Virus record (IMG/VR): IMGVR_UViG_3300009183_000059
Span: 1 to 64,000 of that record
DNA length: 64,000 nucleotides
Strand: one strand, 5' to 3'
Source: a virus
The position numbers and the translations under genes are program-made. Below the pieces are notes generated by a model. The model worked only from the letters and a program-made list of their open reading frames with translations. It was not told the DNA's origin and did no database searches. This document shows positions 9,164 through 44,331 of the stretch, in pieces (the stretch's first letter is position 1; every line of letters starts with the position of its first letter).

Positions 9164-9246
9164 TTACTGTTCTTCTTTCTGTTAGTTTGTTTATATGATA
9201 ATACTAGTGGATAGGGGTGACAAATGTCAAGATTAGATCGTGTGAG

Positions 9247-9459
9247 TTACGCCACACGATTAGCGAATACCCACTTACTTTCGTTAGGGGTAAGGTAGCG
9301 GTGAGAGATAAGACCCTCAGAGGCTACCATATGGACATATGCCATACGGCTAATGTAGTTACCATTAGCAAGGCGGAAGAGTTCATTACTCTTAGTGTTA
9401 GAGGAAGCCATAGAGTGGTTAGGCTCTACTACTACTGATAATGTATTTAGTGAATTCAT
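9247..9459 (-). CDS. Hypothetical protein
   Basis: 70 aa, GAAAGGA RBS, long structured leader. Confidence 0.7.
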   Translation of the reverse strand: MNSLNTLSVVVEPNHSMASSNTKSNELFRLANGNYISRMAYVHMVASEGLISHRYLTPNESKWVFANRVA

Positions 9460-9634
9460 TTTAGAATTCCTTTCTTTTTTATTCGGTTAGTATTTCTAAC
9501 CTTTTTGCTGACCTAGTTTATTTGCTCTTTCGGGAGGCTCACCTAGGATTTTCTTTTATTTAGTTTTTCTTATGTAGTAAGACTATCAGACCAAACCCTG
9601 AAAGTCAAGGCTATTTGGTGTGATGTCTACCACA

Positions 9635-9793
9635 CTAGGGCTTAGTGTATCCCTTACCCTGTGGGCAGTGGATGTCAAACTGACCTCCACACATTACACA
9701 GCGTGTCCACGCTGTGAGTCCCCCGCAGGTATCGCAAGGGGTAAGGGGGAAGGAGAAGCCTCCCGCATTTCTATTTTCATACAGTGAATTCAT
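9635..9793 (-). CDS. Unannotated 52-aa CxxC...CxxC microprotein
   Basis: MNSLYENRNAGGFSFPLTPCDTCGGLTAWTRCVMCGGQFDIHCPQGKGYTKP; GAAAGGA RBS; promoter at 9844-9865. Confidence 0.7.
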   Translation of the reverse strand: MNSLYENRNAGGFSFPLTPCDTCGGLTAWTRCVMCGGQFDIHCPQGKGYTKP

Positions 9794-14311: not shown

Positions 14312-14399
14312 AAGTTTTAGTTCTTTAAAAAAAAGTCACTATACTTAGTATTACCAATAAAATTAAACCCAACATGTGGGACTAGAGGAGTATTCTAAA

Positions 14400-16331
14400 A
14401 TGCAAGATGTAATTAAAAATCCATACGAGAACTTTATCGCTCTGAGCCGTTATGCAAGATGGCTACCAGATCAAAACCGTCGTGAAACTTGGGGAGAGAC
14501 AGTAGATCGATTTGTTTTGTATATGACAAATCACCTTAAGAACGATTATAACTATGAACCTTCTGCTAGCCTAACTCTAGAGATTCGTGATGCAATTTTT
14601 AATAGAAACATCATGCCTTCTATGAGAGCTGTGATGACAGCAGGTCAAGCTTTAGATAGAGATAATGTTGCTGGATACAATTGTTCTTTCTTGCCAGTCG
14701 ATTCAATGCGTTCTTTTGACGAAGCAATGTATATCTTGATGTGCGGAACAGGTGTTGGATTTTCAGTAGAGTCAGTTTACATTGACAAGTTACCAATTGT
14801 TAACGAACACTTTGAAAAAACAGATACAACAATTATAGTTGAAGATTCTAAAGCTGGTTGGGCAAAAGCACTTCGTGAACTTCTTGCTTTGTTATGGCAA
14901 GGACAAATTCCTACATGGGATGTTTCGCAGGTACGTCCTGCAGGTGCAAGACTAAAGACATTTGGTGGACGTGCATCTGGTCCAGAACCATTGGTAAATC
15001 TTTTTGAATTTTGTATTACAACAGTTAAGCATGCGGCAGGAAGAAGATTACGTTCGGTAGAAGCACATGACATTATGTGTAAGATTGGTGAAGTAGTTGT
15101 AGTTGGTGGCGTTCGTCGTTCTGCATTAATTTCACTTTCTGATCTTCGTGATACAGACATGGCAAAAGCAAAGTCTGGTGCTTGGTGGGAGGCAACTGGG
15201 CATCGTGCACTTGCAAATAACTCTGTTGCTTATCAAGAGCGTCCATCAATGGCTGATTTTATTGCTGAGTGGAAAAATCTTTATGATTCAAAATCTGGAG
15301 AGCGTGGCATTTACAATGTTAAGGCTGCACAAAAGCAAGCAGCTAAATATGGTCGTAGAGATGAAACAATTCGTTACGGAACTAATCCTTGTTCTGAAAT
15401 TATTTTGCGTCCGTATCAATTTTGCAATCTTTCAGAAATTATTGTCCGTGAAGAGGATGATGAAAAAACATTAACTCGTAAAGTAGAGCTAGCAACCATT
15501 CTTGGGACATGGCAATCAACACTTACTAACTTTAAGTACCTTCGCAAAATCTGGAGAGAAAATACAGAAGAAGAAAGACTACTTGGCGTTTCTATTACTG
15601 GGCAATTTGGAAATCAACTAATGTCTGGCAAGAAAGGCATGGACAAACTTTCTAAGGTTTTGAATTCACTAAGAGAGATTGCTGTATCTACAAACGTTGA
15701 AGAGGCTGGAAAGATTGGTATTAATCCTTCTGCAGCAGTTACTTGCGTTAAGCCTTCAGGAACTGTTTCACAGCTCACTGGAGTATCTTCTGGTATGCAC
15801 CCATGGCACAACGAATATTACATCCGTACAGTCCGTGGAGACAAGAAAGATCCGCTAACTCAATTTTTAATGGAGGCAGGAGTTCCAGCAGAAGATGACT
15901 TTATGAATCCTACTCAAACAAAAGTATTTTCATTCCCTATCAAAGCTCCAAAGGGTGCTGTATTAAGAAATGATCTTACTGCTATTGAACACTTGAATAT
16001 TTGGCTAACATATCAAAGAGATTGGTGTGAGCATAAGCCTTCTATTACTGTTTCAGTTCGTGATGAAGAGTGGATGGAAGTTGGTTCTTGGGTTTGGGAT
16101 CACTTTGACGAAGTTTCAGGAATTTCGTTCTTGCCATACTCTGACCACACTTACAAGCAAGCCCCTTATCAGGATGCTACAGAGCAGGAATACTTAGACG
16201 CCGTTGCAAAGATGCCAGAAGAAATTCATTGGTCAATGCTAACTCTTTATGAGACAGAAGACTCAACTACTGGAAGTCAAAATCTGGCATGTTCAGCTGA
16301 TGCTGGATGCGAAGTGGTAGACATTAACTAG
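14400..16331 (+). CDS. nrdJ: Class II adenosylcobalamin-dependent ribonucleotide reductase
   Basis: RRETWGETVDR, YNCSF, GTGVGFS, TNPCSEI, FCNLSE, CVKPSGT, C-terminal Cys pair; GAGGAG RBS before ATG 14400. Confidence 0.92.
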   Translation: MQDVIKNPYENFIALSRYARWLPDQNRRETWGETVDRFVLYMTNHLKNDYNYEPSASLTLEIRDAIFNRNIMPSMRAVMTAGQALDRDNVAGYNCSFLPVDSMRSFDEAMYILMCGTGVGFSVESVYIDKLPIVNEHFEKTDTTIIVEDSKAGWAKALRELLALLWQGQIPTWDVSQVRPAGARLKTFGGRASGPEPLVNLFEFCITTVKHAAGRRLRSVEAHDIMCKIGEVVVVGGVRRSALISLSDLRDTDMAKAKSGAWWEATGHRALANNSVAYQERPSMADFIAEWKNLYDSKSGERGIYNVKAAQKQAAKYGRRDETIRYGTNPCSEIILRPYQFCNLSEIIVREEDDEKTLTRKVELATILGTWQSTLTNFKYLRKIWRENTEEERLLGVSITGQFGNQLMSGKKGMDKLSKVLNSLREIAVSTNVEEAGKIGINPSAAVTCVKPSGTVSQLTGVSSGMHPWHNEYYIRTVRGDKKDPLTQFLMEAGVPAEDDFMNPTQTKVFSFPIKAPKGAVLRNDLTAIEHLNIWLTYQRDWCEHKPSITVSVRDEEWMEVGSWVWDHFDEVSGISFLPYSDHTYKQAPYQDATEQEYLDAVAKMPEEIHWSMLTLYETEDSTTGSQNLACSADAGCEVVDIN

Positions 16332-16385: not shown

Positions 16386-16736
16386 ATGCCATTTTTAACT
16401 AAGAATTTTAATGTAGACGAAGGCGCTACACTGACTTTCACTATCTTTTGGAAAGATCCAAATGATATTCCAATTAATATAACTGGTTATTCCGCAAAAA
16501 TGCAGGCAAGAGATAAGCAAGGCGGAAAGATACTTTGCTTTACTTTAACCCATACAGATGGAATAGCTATAAATGGCCCACTCGGAAGAATTAGCGTAAC
16601 AGTATCTGCAGAAAGAACTACTAAGCTAGTTTATCCAAAGTCATTCTATGATCTAGTTCTCACCGCCCCAGATGGAGTTACCAAGACACGAATTCTTGAA
16701 GGAACACTTAGTGTTTCAAAGGCGGTTACAGTCTAA
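16386..16736 (+). CDS. Ig-like virion/fibre attachment protein (BppU/LtfC N-terminal-like)
   Basis: GATLTFTIFWKD...INITGYSAKMQAR...YDLVL...RILEG pattern; TGcTAAAAT promoter upstream. Confidence 0.65.
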   Translation: MPFLTKNFNVDEGATLTFTIFWKDPNDIPINITGYSAKMQARDKQGGKILCFTLTHTDGIAINGPLGRISVTVSAERTTKLVYPKSFYDLVLTAPDGVTKTRILEGTLSVSKAVTV

Positions 16737-18532: not shown

Positions 18533-18787
18533 ATGTCATCTATAAAAAGACTAGTACCACTTCATGCAGTTGAATTATCAACAGACCCAGCCAATGGAAG
18601 AATTGGCGATATTTATTATAATAGTGCTGTAAAAGAATTAAGATTTTATGATGGAAGCTCATGGCAACCTGCTGGTGGAGCACTTAGTGGTATTTTAGAT
18701 CACGTACACACTTATGATGGAGAAATTTATTCTGTAGAAAATGTTCAAATTCCAAATCCAGGATTTATTGATGGCGGAGATGCATAA
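18533..18787 (+). CDS. Small fibre-associated protein
   Basis: GDIYYNS...LRFYDGSSW, IDGG end motif. Confidence 0.65.
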   Translation: MSSIKRLVPLHAVELSTDPANGRIGDIYYNSAVKELRFYDGSSWQPAGGALSGILDHVHTYDGEIYSVENVQIPNPGFIDGGDA

Positions 18788-19989
18788 TGTCATCAGTTAT
18801 AAGATTACGAAGAGGAACATCTGCTCAATGGGCAACATCAACAATAGTTCTTGCTACCGCTGAACTTGGTTTAGATACAACTTTAAATAAATTAAAAGTT
18901 GGAAATGGCATGTATACATGGCCAAATCTTCCTTTTATAAATGTTCTACCTTCAGAGCTTGCTGAACTATCTCAAGATGCTATAAATAGCGCTTTAGTCA
19001 TGGGACTACATATGTCAAAGACATATGACGATGCTGCAAATACAATAACAATTGCCTCTACTCTTACAAATGTAGATAATACATCTGATGCAAATAAGCC
19101 TATATCTACAGCCACCGCAACCGCATTAAATCTTAAAGCACCATTAGCAAATCCAGCATTAACGGGAATACCAACTGCTCCAACTGCAACGGATACAACT
19201 AATACAACACAGATTGCAACAACAGAGTTTGTTAAAACTGCCGTCGCAAATCTTGTTAACTCAGCGCCAGAAGCATTAAATACTCTTAAAGAATTATCAG
19301 ATGCACTGGGTGCCGATTCAAATTATGCAAGCACAATATCTACTGCTTTAGGACTAAAAGCTCCTTTAGCTTCACCAACATTTAGCGGAACAGTATCTTT
19401 ACCATCGAATACATCTATTGGGACAGTTAGCTCAACAGAAATTGGATATGTATATGGTGTTACATCATCAATTCAGAATCAAATAAATTTAAAATCTCCA
19501 CTAGCAAATCCAACATTTACTGGAACAGTAAATGGTATTACAAAAACAATGGTTGGCCTAGGAAATGTAGATAATACTTCAGATTTAGATAAACCAGTAT
19601 CATCTGCAGCTTCACTTTTGCTTGGACAACTACAAACATCACTAACGGATGGACTTGCAGCTAAAGTTGATAAGGCAACTATCCCATCAATTAAATCTGA
19701 TACAGCATATACAATTAGCAATCAAACAGATAGATATAATAGACTTGAATTTGATTCTTCATCACCAATTACTGTAACTATTCCAACAAATTTAAATGAT
19801 CCTTGGCCAGTAGGTTCAAGCTGTGAAATTATGCAGGCTGGAACTGGGAAAATTACTGTAGTTGGTCAATCTGGTGTAACTTTAAATGCACCAGACAATC
19901 AATTTAAAACCAGAGTTCAGTGGAGCACACTTATCCTTGAAAAAAGAAGCCAAAATAGTTGGCTAGTATCGGGAGACTCTGATCTATAA
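18787..19989 (+). CDS. Tail fibre with Mtd/hyaluronidase-type N-terminal domain
   Basis: IRLRRGTSAQW...ELGLDTTLNKLKVGNG; NVDNTSDxxKP, KAPLASPTF, LNTLKELSDALG repeats; C-terminal QAGTGKITV...WLVSGD. Confidence 0.8.
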   Translation: MSSVIRLRRGTSAQWATSTIVLATAELGLDTTLNKLKVGNGMYTWPNLPFINVLPSELAELSQDAINSALVMGLHMSKTYDDAANTITIASTLTNVDNTSDANKPISTATATALNLKAPLANPALTGIPTAPTATDTTNTTQIATTEFVKTAVANLVNSAPEALNTLKELSDALGADSNYASTISTALGLKAPLASPTFSGTVSLPSNTSIGTVSSTEIGYVYGVTSSIQNQINLKSPLANPTFTGTVNGITKTMVGLGNVDNTSDLDKPVSSAASLLLGQLQTSLTDGLAAKVDKATIPSIKSDTAYTISNQTDRYNRLEFDSSSPITVTIPTNLNDPWPVGSSCEIMQAGTGKITVVGQSGVTLNAPDNQFKTRVQWSTLILEKRSQNSWLVSGDSDL

Positions 19990-21392
19990 TGGGATTATCA
20001 AGAAAAAAAAGAAACATTGTATCTTCAAGGTTAAAAGCTTTTGTATTCTTTCAAGATAGTTTTAATAATTATTTTAAAGGCGGATGGAAATTTAGAAGAG
20101 GTGAATGGGTAGCCCAGACATCTAAAGCAAGCACTGCATATAGCTCTTCTCTTTATCCAATGGCTTCAGTCCCAATGAAAGATACAAATGTAACTATTTC
20201 TATTAAAGACCCAGGCGTTGGTGCAGGTGCCGCTCTTTGGGTTACAGACGATGGAAACTGGTATGGACTAGTATCTTCACAAACATTAAGTTCTGGAACT
20301 GGTGGATGTGTTTCTGCAAACCCATACAATCCTTGTGGATCTACAAATCCATGCCAACCAACTGGAGGTAATTGCGTCTCATCTGGTGGAAATTGTATTG
20401 CTACTGGAGGATGCTCTGGAACTGGCGGAAACTGCGTGGCAACTGGTGGTGAGTATTGTTGTGAATATCCAGAGTGCGTAGCAACTGGAGGAACCTGTAA
20501 TCAAACTGGCGGAAACTGCATAAGCTCAGGAGGTAATTGTAATACTGGTGGTGGTAATTGTAATACAGGAGGCGGTAACTGTCGCTCTGCTACTGGCGGA
20601 AACTGTAATGCAGGAACTGGAGGAAATTGTAGAACCTTTGGTAACTGCCTGATTTACGGTAGCTATTATATATCTTGTTGTAAATCATACAATCCATATA
20701 ACCCATGTCCTAGCGTTAATCCATATAATCCATGTCCTAGCGTTAATCCATACAACCCTTGTGTAAGTATAAATCCATATAACCCATGCGTAAGTATTAA
20801 TCCCTATCAGGCTTGTAATGGACTTAACCCATATAATCCATGTGCAAACGTCAACCCATATAATCCATGTGGGGCTACTAGATATGTTCAAGTTTATTAT
20901 GCAATAGATCCATGTGGAGCAACAAACCCATATAATCCATGTGGATCTTCAAACCCATATAATCCATGTGCTGGAACAAACCCATATAATCCATGTGCTG
21001 GAACAAACCCATATAATCCATGTGGGGCTGGTGGAAATTGTTCTGGAACTGGCGGAAGTTGTAATTCTTATGCAAATACATATCCAAGATACCTACAATT
21101 TATTAAATTTACATCAAATGTAGCAACTACACTTTTTACAATGACACTAGACGCTGTAACAAGCTATACTCAGATGAGAGGGTTAAAAGTACAAGTTTCA
21201 AATTCAACAAAAGGCGGAACCACAGCCACTATTACGGCTAAAGCATACTCTGATACCGCCATGGTTACGCAGATTGGTCCTGACTTGATATATAACGCAA
21301 CAGGTGTTAATATTATAGCTAACTACGGAATAGTTGTTTCTCCAAGCAGCTATAACGAAGATAAGTCACTTGGGGAAATTACAATATCGTAA
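19989..21392 (+). CDS. Fibre-associated protein with mirror-symmetric 34-Cys GGNC/NPYNPC insert in a beta-rich scaffold
   Basis: Direct reading of the translation; coupled (TAATG) to the fibre gene. Confidence 0.85.
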   Translation: MGLSRKKRNIVSSRLKAFVFFQDSFNNYFKGGWKFRRGEWVAQTSKASTAYSSSLYPMASVPMKDTNVTISIKDPGVGAGAALWVTDDGNWYGLVSSQTLSSGTGGCVSANPYNPCGSTNPCQPTGGNCVSSGGNCIATGGCSGTGGNCVATGGEYCCEYPECVATGGTCNQTGGNCISSGGNCNTGGGNCNTGGGNCRSATGGNCNAGTGGNCRTFGNCLIYGSYYISCCKSYNPYNPCPSVNPYNPCPSVNPYNPCVSINPYNPCVSINPYQACNGLNPYNPCANVNPYNPCGATRYVQVYYAIDPCGATNPYNPCGSSNPYNPCAGTNPYNPCAGTNPYNPCGAGGNCSGTGGSCNSYANTYPRYLQFIKFTSNVATTLFTMTLDAVTSYTQMRGLKVQVSNSTKGGTTATITAKAYSDTAMVTQIGPDLIYNATGVNIIANYGIVVSPSSYNEDKSLGEITIS

Positions 21393-21402
21393 GGAGTATA
21401 CT

Positions 21403-21621
21403 ATGACAATTGATATCCCAGCATGGGACAGGGTTTCAGTAGGAGAACCTGCACCAACAATCCCATTTGCATTAATTTTAGATGGAGTCGTACAGCAAGT
21501 AATGAATACAAACGTAACAACAGCATCTCTTCTTTTAGAAAACCCACAAATTATTAGAACTAATGATTACACTGTTGTTGGCGATACAGCTGATTCAGCA
21601 GTTTTTGTACAGCCAGCTTAA
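21403..21621 (+). CDS. Small protein, paralogue of 22327-22635 (start revised)
   Basis: AAGGAG RBS before ATG 21403; ALILDGVVQQVM...LLLENPQII. Confidence 0.75.
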   Translation: MTIDIPAWDRVSVGEPAPTIPFALILDGVVQQVMNTNVTTASLLLENPQIIRTNDYTVVGDTADSAVFVQPA

Positions 21622-21652: not shown

Positions 21653-22330
21653 ATGAAAATAATAAAGTTCATTCCTTTTGGCGGGAGGAAAAAACTTATG
21701 CCACCATCTGTTTCAAAAATACCACAATGGTGGAGAGATGGGGAGTTAGTTTTATCCCAAGGTGAACCTGGACTAAAATCGTGTGTTCCTTTTATGGAAG
21801 TTATGATGTCTGGATATACAATAAATCTGCCGTTTGATTTGTTTGTTTCTAAAAATGAAGAAGGAAACACTAGCATAAAATGGAATGCTCCAGGTCATAA
21901 TGGCTGGCCAAATTTTATTGAAGAAAGACCAAAAGAACTTGGAGAGACTATTCCAAGGCCAGCAGGTCATTTACCAAATGGTTTTATTTGGGCTGGTCAG
22001 TGGTCGTGGAAAACTCCAAAAGGATATAGTGCTTTAGTTACTCATCCATTTAATAGGTTTGATTTACCATTCACCACTTTGTCAGCTACAATGGACGCCG
22101 ATAAATTTTATGGCAATGGAAATGTTCCGTTTTTCCTTAAAGAAGATTTTCAAGGAGTAATTCCTGCTGGAACACCAATAATTCAAATTTTCCCTTACAA
22201 AAGAGATAAATGGAAGTCTTGGGTAGATGATTCTGAGCTAGAACGTATAAACGAAAAACAATTAATAAATCTAAGAACTCCTGAAGGATCATATAAAAAA
22301 AGATTTTGGGTAAAAAAGGTGTATGAATGA
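21653..22330 (+). CDS. DUF6065-related (dUTPase-like fold) protein 1
   Basis: KSCVPF...GY, TPKGYSALVTHPFNR, LSATMDAD, IPAGTPIIQIFPYKR. Confidence 0.65.
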   Translation: MKIIKFIPFGGRKKLMPPSVSKIPQWWRDGELVLSQGEPGLKSCVPFMEVMMSGYTINLPFDLFVSKNEEGNTSIKWNAPGHNGWPNFIEERPKELGETIPRPAGHLPNGFIWAGQWSWKTPKGYSALVTHPFNRFDLPFTTLSATMDADKFYGNGNVPFFLKEDFQGVIPAGTPIIQIFPYKRDKWKSWVDDSELERINEKQLINLRTPEGSYKKRFWVKKVYE

Positions 22331-22635
22331 TATTTAGAAAAAAAAATAAGATTGAAAAAATCAACCCAAAAATAGATGATTTTAAACAGCCAAAAAATTA
22401 TCATAGCCCCATAAAAACATATTCTATTGCTTTAGTTCTGGACAATGAGGTCCAGGATATAATTAGAACAGAGGAAAGACTTTGGGCAATGCTAATGAGC
22501 AACCCACTGATAATAGATATAACAGACCTTGAAACAAGACCAGGTTTAAACTGGGAATACAATGAAGAAACAGGAGAGTTTACAAATCCAAATGCGATTC
22601 AGCCCAACAACAAAGAAGATCAAAGCCTTATCTGA
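22327..22635 (+). CDS. Small protein, paralogue of 21403-21621, fibre-chaperone-like
   Basis: ALVLDNEVQDII...MLMSNPLII...GLNWEYNEETGEFTNP. Confidence 0.75.
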   Translation: MIFRKKNKIEKINPKIDDFKQPKNYHSPIKTYSIALVLDNEVQDIIRTEERLWAMLMSNPLIIDITDLETRPGLNWEYNEETGEFTNPNAIQPNNKEDQSLI

Positions 22636-23272
22636 AGATATTTATGTAGACTGGGAAAAACCAAGTCCATCATCAAAAGAAATACCAGACTGGTTTAAAA
22701 AAATTCAATCAGTAGATGATGAACATCATGATATGACTATTAAAAAGTGTATACCAGTTTTGGATACGCTTACAATAGGATATGTATTTAAAACTTCTGC
22801 AGATGTGATATATGATGACAGATATAAGAGATTTCTTGACAACGGTGTTGGTGATGTTGTTACTCATCATCCATCATTTCAAATAGAAAATATGGAGATA
22901 GACAGTAATCTTGACCCAATTCCATTTAAATGGATAAATAAATTTTTTTGGCAAACCCCAAAAGGATACAGCACTCTTTTTACACATCCTTTAAATAGAA
23001 CAGATTTGCCGTTTCAGACTCTTTCTGGAGTAGTAGATACAGATGATTTTCCTTTATCTGTCCAGTTTCCGTTTTTTATAAAAAAGGGATTTTCTGGATT
23101 AATTCCTGCTGGTACTCCAATAATTCAAGCAATACCTTTTAAAAGAGATAATTGGGAGCTAGAATTTCCAGATCAAGATAGATCTTATGAGTATGAAGAA
23201 TTTTGGAATTGGTTTAATCCACCAATGGCTAAGTATAAAAAACAGTTCTGGAAGAGAAAGACTTATAAATGA
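22592..23272 (+). CDS. DUF6065-related protein 2 (start 22562 or 22592)
   Basis: KKCIPV...GY, TPKGYSTLFTHPLNR, LSGVVDTD, IPAGTPIIQAIPFKR. Confidence 0.65.
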   Translation: MRFSPTTKKIKALSEDIYVDWEKPSPSSKEIPDWFKKIQSVDDEHHDMTIKKCIPVLDTLTIGYVFKTSADVIYDDRYKRFLDNGVGDVVTHHPSFQIENMEIDSNLDPIPFKWINKFFWQTPKGYSTLFTHPLNRTDLPFQTLSGVVDTDDFPLSVQFPFFIKKGFSGLIPAGTPIIQAIPFKRDNWELEFPDQDRSYEYEEFWNWFNPPMAKYKKQFWKRKTYK

Positions 23273-24117
23273 AAAATGGGTCAAAAAGTCCATGGGAAAT
23301 CTTTAAATCTAAAAAGATTGAAAAAATATCTTTAGAGGATGAGATAAAAAAAGATTATATCAACGACGATAATTTTCTTGTCCCAGAAAAAACTTTGGCT
23401 TTCTATGCAACTAAAGATACTAGGCATAATCTTTCTGACGTAATAGAAAGTCTGGTAGGCCATCCAAATAGAGATTGGTTTTCAATAACAGCATTTTCTT
23501 TTTGTCTGCCTTTAACAATAGCAAATCAGTATGGTTTTGTTGTAAAATCAAATTGGGATGCAGAGATATTTTGGGATGGCAATATAGAAAATCCACCAGA
23601 AATTAAATCTGAAGGATGGCAAAATCATGAATCTATACAGCCTTTATTAGGAGATTTTGCAAATGGAATAATTACACTAGAAAATAAATTTATTGTAAGG
23701 ACCCCAAGGGATACAAATTTAATGATAATGCAGCCACCAAATTATTTTATTCCAGGGCTACATACTATGAGCGCTGTTGTCGAATCAGATAATCTTAGAA
23801 GAAATTTTACCTTTAATATAAAAGTAACTGAGCCAAATAAGACCATAAATATTAAAAAGGGTGACTGGCTTGCAGCCTTTATACCAATCCCAAGATTCTA
23901 TGTAGATATGTTTAAGATGAAGGATGCCTTTGATTTGTTTGGTGAAGAGGTTATAAAAAATGAGCTAGAATCCATGCATAAGCTTGGATGGGAAAGAAAT
24001 AATCAAGATTATGATAAAATTAATGGTTCAGGAAGAAGATATTTTAAAGGTAAGCATGTAAATGAAACAATGTATAGAAATCATCAAAAGAGGGCGGGTT
24101 CAATAAATGGACAATAA
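23269..24117 (+). CDS. DUF6065 family protein 3
   Basis: FCLPLTIANQYGF, RTP...PPNY, SAVVESD, FTFNIK, KKGDWLAAFIPIPR. Confidence 0.7.
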   Translation: MKNGSKSPWEIFKSKKIEKISLEDEIKKDYINDDNFLVPEKTLAFYATKDTRHNLSDVIESLVGHPNRDWFSITAFSFCLPLTIANQYGFVVKSNWDAEIFWDGNIENPPEIKSEGWQNHESIQPLLGDFANGIITLENKFIVRTPRDTNLMIMQPPNYFIPGLHTMSAVVESDNLRRNFTFNIKVTEPNKTINIKKGDWLAAFIPIPRFYVDMFKMKDAFDLFGEEVIKNELESMHKLGWERNNQDYDKINGSGRRYFKGKHVNETMYRNHQKRAGSINGQ

Positions 24118-24376
24118 TGATATTCCTAAATGGAAAAATGTTCCAGCTAGACCGTGGGACCTATTTAATAAAAAAATAGGTAGAGTCTCTGTAGAGGTTG
24201 CGGCTGAGAGATTTGAGATATGTAAGGCATGCCCAAGATATGTTAAATCTACCCATCAGTGCTTAGAATGCGGATGTATTATGAATTTAAAAGTTAAGCT
24301 TCCAAATGCAGAATGCCCATTAGGTCATTGGGGACAAGTTGACCTAGAAGAAGACTTAGACACAAAAGAAGAGTAG
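24107..24376 (+). CDS. Small Cys-rich metal-binding protein (DUF6171-like)
   Basis: RFEICKACP...QCLECGCIM..K......CPLGHW. Confidence 0.75.
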   Translation: MDNNDIPKWKNVPARPWDLFNKKIGRVSVEVAAERFEICKACPRYVKSTHQCLECGCIMNLKVKLPNAECPLGHWGQVDLEEDLDTKEE

Positions 24377-42428: not shown

Positions 42429-42773
42429 ATGCTAAATAAATTAGGTAAAGCCAAGGTAGTTGCAGACAAGACCAAGTATGGAGTCTATGTTTGGGAAATG
42501 CCAGATGGCAAATGGGTAGGAGACGATGAAGGTCACTACATGTTGATCCCAGCAGTCTTTGGTGATGCGGAAAAAATTAAGATTTTAAAAGAAGCAGCAG
42601 AGGGATATGGAGTTACTGAGGGTGCACCAAAGTTTCTTCCAGGTCGTAGAAAAGTTTCTGATGAAGAGTATGCAGCACAAGAAGCAAGACTGCATGCTGG
42701 TTTGACACCAGATCCGTGGGATCTTGGAGAAGGTTTAGACGCCGCAAAAAGGATGGTACAAAATGGCCGCTGA
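42429..42773 (+). CDS. Hypothetical pre-portal protein, probably leaderless
   Basis: YGVYVWEMPDG...GRRKVSDEEY; TGgTAGAAT ends 6 nt before ATG. Confidence 0.75.
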   Translation: MLNKLGKAKVVADKTKYGVYVWEMPDGKWVGDDEGHYMLIPAVFGDAEKIKILKEAAEGYGVTEGAPKFLPGRRKVSDEEYAAQEARLHAGLTPDPWDLGEGLDAAKRMVQNGR

Positions 42774-44331
42774 GTTCATTGAAGATACAGAGACGATTGA
42801 GATAAGTGGATCTGGCGATATGTTCGCTGGTGTTCGTGGAAACGAATATGGAGATCCGTTTAGTCGTGGTTTAGATGAAGTAAAAAAGATGAGTGGGTTT
42901 AGCACCAACTTTAAAAAGAAGGTTGCTAGAACAGATTTTTCAAAGTTCCTTCGTGGAGATGGTTCACAGAGCACAGCAATTGTAGAACCATTTATGATTA
43001 CTGGATACAGCATACTTGATGTTGTTATGCCTCCATACAACCTAGACTACCTTGCAAAGATTTATGAAATTTCTTCACCACATTATGCTGCAGTCAATGC
43101 AAAGATTGCAAACATCGTTGGTTTAGGCTATGATTTTGTTGAGAGTGAAGCAACTAAAGAGCGCCTCTCAGATATAGAAGATGAAAAAGGTTTAGAGAGA
43201 GCACGTAGAAAGCTTGAAAGATTAAAGCTTCAAATGCATACTTGGCTAGAGAACACAAACGAAGAAGAAACATTTGTAGAGACTCTTGCTAGAGTTTGGA
43301 AAGACTATGAGACAACTGGAAACGGTTACCTTGAAGTAGGAAGAAAAAATACTGGAGAGATTGGCTACATTGGCCATGTTCCATCAGCATCAATGCGTAT
43401 TCGCAGAATGAGAGATGGATTTGTCCAGATCATTGGAAACCAAACTGTATTCTTTAGAAATTACGGAGATACTGAAACTCCAAACCCTATAACTTCAGAC
43501 GTAGTGCCAAATGAAGTTATTCACTTTAAGAATTACACTCCAACAAACGGCTTCTACGGAGTGCCAGATATTATTTCCTCAAAGAATGCTATGGCAGGAA
43601 ATGAATTTGCGGCAAGATTTAATCTAGACTATTTTGAGAACAAGGCCGTCCCTAGATACATTATTACAGTCAAGGGTGCAAAGTTGTCTAACGATGCAGA
43701 AAGAAAGCTCCTAGAGTTCTTCCAGACAGGTTTAAAGGGCAAGAATCATCGCTCCTTATACATACCTTTACCTTCAGATAATTCTGACTCAAAGGTTGAG
43801 TTTAAAATGGAAGCAGTTGAGGCTGGAGTTCAAGACTCCTCATTTGATAAATATAAGTCAGCCAACAGAGATGAAATATTAATGTCTCACCGTGTCCCTA
43901 TTAGCAAGATCGGAACTCCTCAAGGAGTATCCCTTGCAAATGCCAAGGATGCCGATAAGACATTCAAAGAGCAGGTATGTAGACCATCACAAAGAACTCT
44001 TGAAAAGAGACTAGGCAAGATTATTGCTGAAAAGACAGACATGTTCTTGATCAAGTTCAATGAATTAACATTGACAGATGAAGATACTCAATCCAAGATT
44101 GATGAGAGATACCTAAGAATGAAGGTCATTGTTCCGAATGAAATTCGTGCTAGAATGGGACTACAAGGTTTATCGGGTGGAGATGTACCTGTTGAATTGA
44201 ACGCAAAAACAGCCGCTGAGTTAACAACTCAAGCCACAGGCAATAGACAGCGAGATCAAGAAAGACAGGCAAATCAAGCAGACAACGGTGGAAGCAGAAA
44301 TGCTCAAGGCGACGGACGTCAAACTCAATAG
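42763..44331 (+). CDS. Portal protein
   Basis: GNGYLEV, NEVIHFK...FYGVP, YFENKAVP, EILMSHRVP, PNEIR. Confidence 0.93.
   Translation: MAAEFIEDTETIEISGSGDMFAGVRGNEYGDPFSRGLDEVKKMSGFSTNFKKKVARTDFSKFLRGDGSQSTAIVEPFMITGYSILDVVMPPYNLDYLAKIYEISSPHYAAVNAKIANIVGLGYDFVESEATKERLSDIEDEKGLERARRKLERLKLQMHTWLENTNEEETFVETLARVWKDYETTGNGYLEVGRKNTGEIGYIGHVPSASMRIRRMRDGFVQIIGNQTVFFRNYGDTETPNPITSDVVPNEVIHFKNYTPTNGFYGVPDIISSKNAMAGNEFAARFNLDYFENKAVPRYIITVKGAKLSNDAERKLLEFFQTGLKGKNHRSLYIPLPSDNSDSKVEFKMEAVEAGVQDSSFDKYKSANRDEILMSHRVPISKIGTPQGVSLANAKDADKTFKEQVCRPSQRTLEKRLGKIIAEKTDMFLIKFNELTLTDEDTQSKIDERYLRMKVIVPNEIRARMGLQGLSGGDVPVELNAKTAAELTTQATGNRQRDQERQANQADNGGSRNAQGDGRQTQ

Follow-up and report, generated by a model that had tools for sequence, protein, structure and literature searches.

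What does a phage protein form when 34 Cys residues are crowded into one internal segment and laid out as if that segment mirrored itself about a central turn? The gene that raises this question, which we named P0001, lies in a 64,000-nucleotide (nt) stretch, hereafter called the window. It covers positions 1 to 64,000 of the 94-kb virus record IMGVR_UViG_3300009183_000059 in IMG/VR, with a GC content of 38%. We consider it reasonably probable that P0001 encodes a fibre-tip adhesin, whose hypervariable insert would be a register-locked antiparallel hairpin cross-linked by disulfides. The gene and its parts are as follows.

19989..21392, plus strand: gene of the putative Cys-ladder adhesin (P0001), an open frame of 467 amino acids (aa)
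19989..20306, plus strand: residues 1-106, N-terminal peptide and first half of a predicted concanavalin-A-like beta-sandwich
20307..20648, plus strand: outbound arm, residues 107-220, Cys 1-18; two NP-type units, then 7-residue GG-type units
20436-20477, plus strand: irregular segment of the outbound arm, residues 150-163, with the vicinal Cys 8/9
20649..20675, plus strand: aromatic tip LIYGSYYIS, residues 221-229
20676..21062, plus strand: return arm, residues 230-358, Cys 19-34; vicinal CC, 9-residue NP-type units, two final GG-type units
20871-20915, plus strand: irregular segment of the return arm, residues 295-309
21063..21392, plus strand: residues 359-467 and stop codon, second half of the predicted concanavalin-A-like beta-sandwich

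Every one of the 34 Cys falls within residues 107-358 (nt 20307-21062), which we refer to as the insert. Cys makes up 13.5% of the insert versus 0.48% pooled over the other 32 open reading frames (ORFs) of the window, and in each of the neighbouring fibre proteins there are 0-1 Cys. This Cys pattern is far from chance. The spacers between Cys are 6-15 residues long and rich in Gly and Pro; those on the outbound arm mostly have 7 residues and end in GGNC, and those on the return arm mostly have 9 and end in NPYNPC. When the Cys were paired from the outside in, the two 6-residue spacers were found opposite one another, and so were the two irregular segments. At the outer end the spacer types swap, with two outbound NP-type units standing opposite two return GG-type units. 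Like Cys 8/9, Cys 19/20 are vicinal, and they follow the LIYGSYYIS tip directly. An initial annotation of this DNA had already described the 34 Cys, the spacer layout with its outer swap and aligned segments, and an aromatic tip at the turn; the 467-aa frame gave the same count and positions and the same layout, with the tip at residues 221-229.

We also examined the DNA of the insert. It carries direct tandem repeats of 21 nt and 27 nt, and a search of it for inverted repeats returned none. A DNA palindrome was therefore ruled out as the source of the mirror symmetry, which exists at the protein level only.

To compare P0001 with its relatives, we used a set of 108 homologues from one search, and 286 representatives (one per 50%-identity cluster, E<=0.001) from an exhaustive profile search. 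Cys statistics were taken from 137 full-length representatives and from 120 Cys-bearing ones, and a tree was built from the terminal domains alone. Across the family, about 105 N-terminal and about 108 C-terminal residues are conserved, and the insert between them ranges from about 60 to about 300 residues.

In the 137 full-length representatives, 97% of all Cys are located inside the insert. Their number runs 4, 6, 8 and so on up to 46, and it is even in 118 of the 120 Cys-bearing representatives; among those with at least 6 Cys, 115 counts are even and 2 are odd (binomial p about 1e-31). One of the odd cases has an additional Cys at residue 9, outside the insert, and the other seems to be missing its last unit. 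Further, the Cys number changed at least 94 times on the tree (120 Cys-bearing rows), so even parity is not something inherited by descent. Pairwise cross-linking, as originally proposed, is thus what the counts point to, and nested intramolecular disulfides are the simplest reading of them. The oxic freshwater habitat fits such disulfides. In the freshwater cyanophage Pam3, virion disulfides were shown by mass spectrometry and dithiothreitol (DTT) treatment (PMC9942802).

If the two arms face each other, they should gain and lose units together, and the annotation had named independently varying repeat types as an observation that would contradict it. We observed equal Cys counts on the two arms in 20 of the 33 homologues with a recognisable tip (13/13, 14/14, 15/15, 16/16). 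The arms differed by 2 in 11 of the remaining homologues, by 4 in one, and by 1 in another with an odd total; most of those differing by 2 or 4 have extra vicinal or short-spacer Cys on one arm. The arms number 19/19 Cys in the homologue at locus L007 and 22/20 in that at L008, which begins with a local C-xx-C-xx-C cluster. The landmarks also matched. Counted in rungs from the outer end, the long irregular spacer stands at 7/7 in the P0003 group, at 10/10 in L007, and at 6/6 in P0007, P0008, P0009 and L004-L006. The inner blocks are equal across the arms (8/8, 9/9), and so is the swapped outer block, NP-type on the way out and GG-type on the return (2/2, 3/3); therefore, outer and inner blocks co-vary separately. 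In a second subfamily, where 9-residue units stand opposite 11-residue units, the repeat numbers are 4/4, 5/5 and 6/6.

We repeated the comparison blind, pairing the Cys of all proteins simply outside-in and correlating the lengths of facing spacers. In the mirror register, the Spearman coefficient was 0.50 over 131 sequences and 0.66 over 110 representatives from separate 50%-identity clusters, whereas shifted registers gave only -0.13 to 0.32, with 0.15-0.32 as the counterpart of the 0.66. The mirror register was the best of seven in 56 of 89 proteins, and facing spacers were exactly equal in 46% of cases versus 27% in shifted registers. A strict beta-ribbon rule, by which facing spacers should differ by an even number of residues, was tried as well; 66% of the differences were even, compared with 55-57% in shifted registers, a result driven by exact equality and not decisive. 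These results indicate that the two repeat arrays do not vary independently: arm counts, landmarks and facing spacer lengths all co-vary, and an antiparallel, register-locked hairpin is therefore well supported by the comparison of homologues. A narrower statement, that a GG-type spacer always faces an NP-type one, applies to this lineage; in the family at large it failed, facing spacers being mostly alike and of equal length.

What does the insert protrude from? AlphaFold2, given a 40-sequence alignment, predicted residues ~29-111 and 357-467 to form one beta-sandwich, with a predicted local distance difference test (pLDDT) score of 73-90. Residues 1-28 are a conserved N-terminal peptide of low pLDDT and a candidate docking segment. 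We compared the sandwich with 48,161 solved chains in a fold search independent of Foldseek. It matched the carbohydrate-binding module (CBM) CBM66 (4b1m_A; Z 15.9, root-mean-square deviation 3.0, 154 of 165 residues aligned), the baseplate protein of mycobacteriophage Douge (8zdo; Z 13.8), the receptor-binding domain of TM4 gp23 (9n6a; Z 12.5), CBM2 of the J-1 Dit (5ly8; Z 11.6) and G7C gp63.1 (4qnl; Z 9.4), together with dozens of lectin/CBM/GH43-C matches at Z 9-14. According to this model, the two termini together are a concanavalin-A-like lectin/CBM sandwich, as in mycobacteriophage receptor-binding proteins. As the sandwich matches domains of receptor-binding type, the insert would be a loop excursion from such a domain, in agreement with the lectin-like beta-sandwich that had been suggested around it. 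No family in Pfam, PHROG or NCBIfam matched P0001 at E<=0.01-0.1, and a PDB sequence search with the insert matched no solved chain. In BFVD, the sole clear relatives were six uncharacterised proteins of uncultured Caudovirales phages.

The insert changes faster than its surroundings. Identity to P0001 over the N-terminal part, the insert and the C-terminal part is 100/93/100% for P0002 and 99/71/99% for P0004. An entropy profile over 194 seven-residue and 221 nine-residue units gave 2.2-2.7 bits at the three positions following each Cys, versus 0.3-1.4 bits in the scaffold motifs GGN-C and NPYNP-C. The tip is kept across subfamilies with unrelated arms, and it is swapped for a GIP-type tip (GIPxxxxYW) between otherwise similar proteins, e.g., P0007 vs P0009, which suggests recombination at the hairpin tip. 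A fixed scaffold combined with variable displayed residues and cassette exchange is the pattern of host-range determinants such as Gp38 (PMC12032242). At two loci (L028:6887-7911 and L030:7031-8040) the homologue is split into two ORFs of ~174 and ~160 aa, for which a frameshift, an error in sequencing or a true gene split may be responsible.

Taking these lines together, we propose the following structure. The 252-residue insert would leave one loop of the sandwich, run out for ~114 residues, turn at the aromatic tip and return antiparallel, with Cys k opposite Cys N+1-k. When the virion comes into oxic water, facing Cys would oxidise to about 16-17 disulfides within the molecule, so that the two strands would be stapled covalently into a ladder. 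A binding surface, presumably for a receptor, would be presented by the tip together with the three positions that follow each Cys. The disulfide chemistry, the shape, the fibre-tip attachment and the receptor binding are points that we infer.

Several observations weigh against this structure. AlphaFold2 gave residues 112-356 a pLDDT below 50 (20-40 over the insert), so geometry and Cys contacts are unreadable and no model displays the Cys pairs; at the tip it placed a beta-hairpin at 214-222/226-234, likewise with low confidence. The disulfides are a prediction from the sequence pattern. The arm spacers are 7 vs 9 residues, for which a plain beta-ladder would need bulges, and at the tip a 6-residue spacer stands opposite a 1-residue spacer. 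Phages assemble in a reducing cytoplasm, which leaves folding before oxidation unexplained. Finally, no Cys at all is present in the mirrored inserts of a whole clade (22 representatives).

These Cys-free forms carry 7-residue GSNYG-type repeats on either side of a non-repetitive centre, and they group as one clade with a support of 99. Because this clade has a mirrored insert, cross-links are not required for a hairpin as such; the mirrored hairpin would therefore be the older principle, and the Cys ladder one mode of bracing it. Cys-free members are found, for example, at L039:4217-5779, L040:2437-3504 and L041:6971-8035, where two DUF6065 genes are kept and the DUF6171-like gene described below is missing.

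The nested pairing could also hold in a different shape. The insert would then be a compact two-layer lattice of short polyproline-II/polyglycine-II helices, with the GG arm as one layer and the NP arm as the other, packed face to face and stapled along both edges, resembling the polyglycine-II sandwich of S16 Gp38 or the glycine-rich fibre lattice of Pam3. We regard this as unlikely, yet it is the strongest of the alternatives. The co-variation data fit its topology equally well, Gly-Gly and Asn-Pro-x-Asn-Pro motifs favour polyproline-II/polyglycine-II over beta structure, and DSSP assigned no strands to the repeats of the AlphaFold2 model (low confidence). Lattices of glycine-rich motifs are known from phage adhesins, including that of a freshwater phage (PMC12032242; PMC9942802). 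However, with a 7-residue period each helix would have only ~4 residues besides its turn, and there is no Gly-x-x periodicity. Length would separate the two shapes: an extended ladder of ~16 rungs x 7 residues could reach 25-35 nm, and the compact lattice with the same pairing would be ~8 nm long. Of the two we tend to favour the extended one, which the annotation had pictured as a whisker of ~120 residues per arm, since a reversal at each unit is impossible in subfamilies with 4-5-residue spacers.

Alternatively, the hairpin register may be right and the facing Cys may bind a metal (Zn, Fe or Cu), possibly shared between the subunits of an oligomer. Axial metal ions are found in T4 gp37 and in phage spike tips. 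Metal binding would be compatible with the reducing cytoplasm, and a CxxC-rich DUF6171-like protein co-occurs with the Cys-bearing forms. The Cys counts speak against it, however. Totals of 10, 14, 18, 22, 26, 30 and 34 are common; such numbers cannot be divided by four and so fit Cys4 metal sites poorly. In place of the CxC/CxxC clusters of metallothioneins, the dominant spacing is 7-9 residues. The repeats have no conserved His, Asp or Glu partners, and two-Cys sites would be weak binders unless shared. We therefore judge a metal-bound hairpin improbable. That the disulfides are local, within one arm, or intermolecular, hardening or cross-linking the fibre, with arms that co-vary by side-by-side packing alone, seems very improbable: many homologues do have vicinal CC, C-x-C or C-xx-C clusters and the Pam3 fibre and baseplate are joined by intermolecular disulfides (PMC9942802), but odd counts per arm (13/13, 15/15, 19/19) force at least one cross-arm link, so that all-local pairing is impossible, and local pairing does not demand the strict mirror-register correlation of spacer lengths.

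The preferred reading, a disulfide-braced hairpin at a fibre tip, also draws on the genes around P0001, which we compared across 40 related IMG/VR loci. The neighbours in the window are as follows.

18787..19989, plus strand: upstream tail-fibre gene, 400 aa; Mtd_N N-terminal domain, fibre repeats, conserved C-terminal domain
21403-21621 and 22327-22635, plus strand: small paralogous ORFs
21653-22330, 22562-23272 and 23269-24117, plus strand: three DUF6065-type paralogues
24107..24376, plus strand: DUF6171-like small Cys protein, 89 aa, 6 Cys; invariant RPWD, C..C, C..CGC and CP..W

The upstream protein matched Pfam Mtd_N (1.9e-12) and many PHROG tail-fibre families, and among solved structures it resembles the tail collar fibre gp4 and the upper fibre gp68. 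Its C-terminal domain, about 85-115 aa (nt 19642-19986 in the window), lies ahead of the Cys-ladder gene at almost every related locus; the fibres themselves vary from 148 to 950 aa, with this domain common to nearly all. In the window, the adhesin ATG overlaps the fibre TAA (TAATG). In related loci the fibre stop is mostly 0-4 nt from the adhesin start, three loci have a 30-nt overlap, and one has a glycosyltransferase gene between the two genes. That the adhesin would be attached to the fibre is suggested by the order of the genes, by their translational coupling and by the co-conservation of the C-terminal domain of the fibre. A modelled complex of three fibre C-terminal domains with the adhesin gave a median of 0.31 against a mark of 0.32, with controls at 0.00-0.02, and was not used as evidence.

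Downstream, at all related loci with enough flank, the adhesin gene is followed by DUF6065-type genes, in 1-4 copies, and roughly two thirds of such loci were seen to have the small ORF as well. This gene order persists down to 33-49% identity between the adhesin termini. We modelled the DUF6065 paralogue D1 (pLDDT 81) and obtained a dUTPase-like fold with a best Z of 8.8; its 22 best structural matches were all dUTPases or dCTP deaminases (Z 8.8-5.3), after which the score dropped to 4.2. PDB sequence searches with the DUF6065 paralogues returned only noise. The family alignment contains no invariant metal triad. Given this fold and the lack of an invariant His/Asp triad, the idea that DUF6065 proteins are 2-oxoglutarate oxygenases that modify Asn or Pro is not supported. 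On the model, an enzymatic function and a trimeric structural or chaperone function are equally likely, and the tandem paralogues hint at a hetero-trimer.

The DUF6171-like gene lies downstream in 29 of 29 Cys-bearing loci with sufficient flank, and it was not found in three Cys-free loci, even with a six-frame motif search. We had considered this absence as independent support for a thiol role; since the Cys-free proteins form one clade, it counts as a single evolutionary event, and the argument is weakened to a lead. The DUF6171-like domain is a separate protein in most loci; in three it is joined to the C-terminus of a PF11397 N-acetylglucosamine (GlcNAc)-transferase (L022:9742-11181, L025:9718-11148, L034:5903-7195), and it may therefore act in some other modification. 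GT2 glycosyltransferase genes are near in L022, L034 and L039, the last with tetratricopeptide (TPR) repeats. These genes suggest that the fibre or adhesin may be glycosylated in some lineages. A second DUF6171-like copy was noticed several kb off in L019, L028, L030 and L034, and L034 has a second partial adhesin-like match at 9221-9670; some genomes may carry two adhesin/DUF6171-like modules. Taken together, synteny supports a functional link between the adhesin and the DUF6065/DUF6171-like cassette. A literature search on DUF6065 and DUF6171 found no papers.

Directly upstream of the fibre block are a class II ribonucleotide reductase (window 14376-16331) and an LtfC-like beta-sandwich protein of the T5 L-shaped fibre assembly type (16386-16736). 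The order of ribonucleotide reductase, LtfC-like protein and fibre block is kept in the closest loci. A single tRNA-Asp (GTC) is located at 295-369 on the minus strand.

Which phage carries this locus? Its portal (window 42763-44331) is 60% identical to the portals of ~130-kb Streptomyces phages, and the stretch occurs in metagenomes from 14 studies, those of freshwater and some that are labelled marine. Judged by these features, it is an uncultured freshwater phage with a portal resembling those of Streptomyces phages, and a low-GC freshwater actinobacterium is a plausible guess for the host. Megablast of 12 kb of the window against INPHARED gave no match, and tblastn of the adhesin against 50,697 phage records gave only collagen-like low-complexity matches on mycobacteriophages.

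We asked how P0001 relates to systems already described. In Gp38, conserved glycine-rich motifs hold hypervariable loops that are thought to touch the receptor (PMC12032242). As in T-even/S16 Gp38 and the glycine-rich domain of Pam3 gp24, Gly-rich scaffold motifs alternate with hypervariable residues in P0001. Further, the gene stands directly 3' of the distal fibre gene, and conserved ends flank a variable region, again as in Gp38. The differences are equally clear. P0001 has no sequence relation to Gp38 (no Pfam or PHROG match), its ends are predicted to form a concanavalin-A-like sandwich whereas Gp38 has an attachment domain and a beta-helix, and Gp38 has neither a cysteine ladder nor mirror symmetry. 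By analogy, P0001 appears most like a Gp38-type adhesin in its working; it is not a member of that family, because the sequence relation is missing and the end domains differ.

With the phage lectin/CBM domains (8zdo, 9n6a, 5ly8) and CBM66 (4b1m), P0001 shares the predicted fold, 154-170 residues being aligned, and with the phage lectin/CBM receptor-binding domains also its location in a tail-fibre gene block. Identity to these domains is only 6-16%, and none of them was found to have a comparable insert.

For the ladder itself, the nearest likeness is the cystine ladder of theta-defensins and a loop of Chlamydomonas HAP2, both antiparallel hairpins with parallel nested disulfides (PMC6327110). 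The bracing principle would be the same, namely nested cross-strand Cys pairing, which in P0001 is deduced from the letters of the protein. Scale and regularity differ. The known ladders have 3 rungs, 1-2-residue spacing and 18-37 residues, whereas P0001 would have about 16-17 rungs (up to 23 in 46-Cys relatives), a 7/9-residue spacing and unlike arms, all within a 467-aa protein. The regular strands, the Cys at every second or third residue and the cyclic backbone of theta-defensins are not found in P0001, whose insert is an open loop. Beetle antifreeze beta-helices also consist of short repeats with a Cys at a fixed position in each, and there consecutive repeats are stacked and bridged locally. 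In P0001, by contrast, the partner of each repeat would be on the opposite arm, ~30-250 residues away.

We searched the literature on cysteine-rich phage fibres and receptor-binding proteins and found nothing comparable to the insert. No curated family, solved structure or paper that we found describes such a module, and the annotation's remark that no described phage fold resembles the insert agrees with the searches of Pfam, PHROG, NCBIfam, the PDB and the literature. We file P0001 as a lectin-fold phage receptor-binding protein combined with a putative cystine ladder, and see a considerable chance that the insert, taken by itself, is a new architecture. In its fullest form, such an architecture would be a register-locked, heterotypic cystine-ladder hairpin of 2-23 rungs, with repeats gained and lost in pairs on the two arms. 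Many freshwater phage adhesins, together a large family, would employ it as a covalently braced and hypervariable display scaffold, matured with the aid of the DUF6171-like and dUTPase-fold DUF6065 proteins. The DUF6171-like Cys protein would then assist through thiol oxidation or templating. We hold this fullest form to be quite possible, at somewhat short of even chance.

If the ladder is real, it would be the longest regular cystine ladder known and the first in a virion protein. Two distant repeat arrays would be obliged to expand and contract together, which would provide a model for how long-range structural coupling constrains repeat evolution. The ladder would also be a very stable, presumably protease-resistant scaffold showing ~30 variable tripeptides, with a possible use for engineered binders, and it would place DUF6065 and DUF6171 in a testable context. 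For widespread uncultured freshwater phages (14 studies), a host-range determinant would have been identified.

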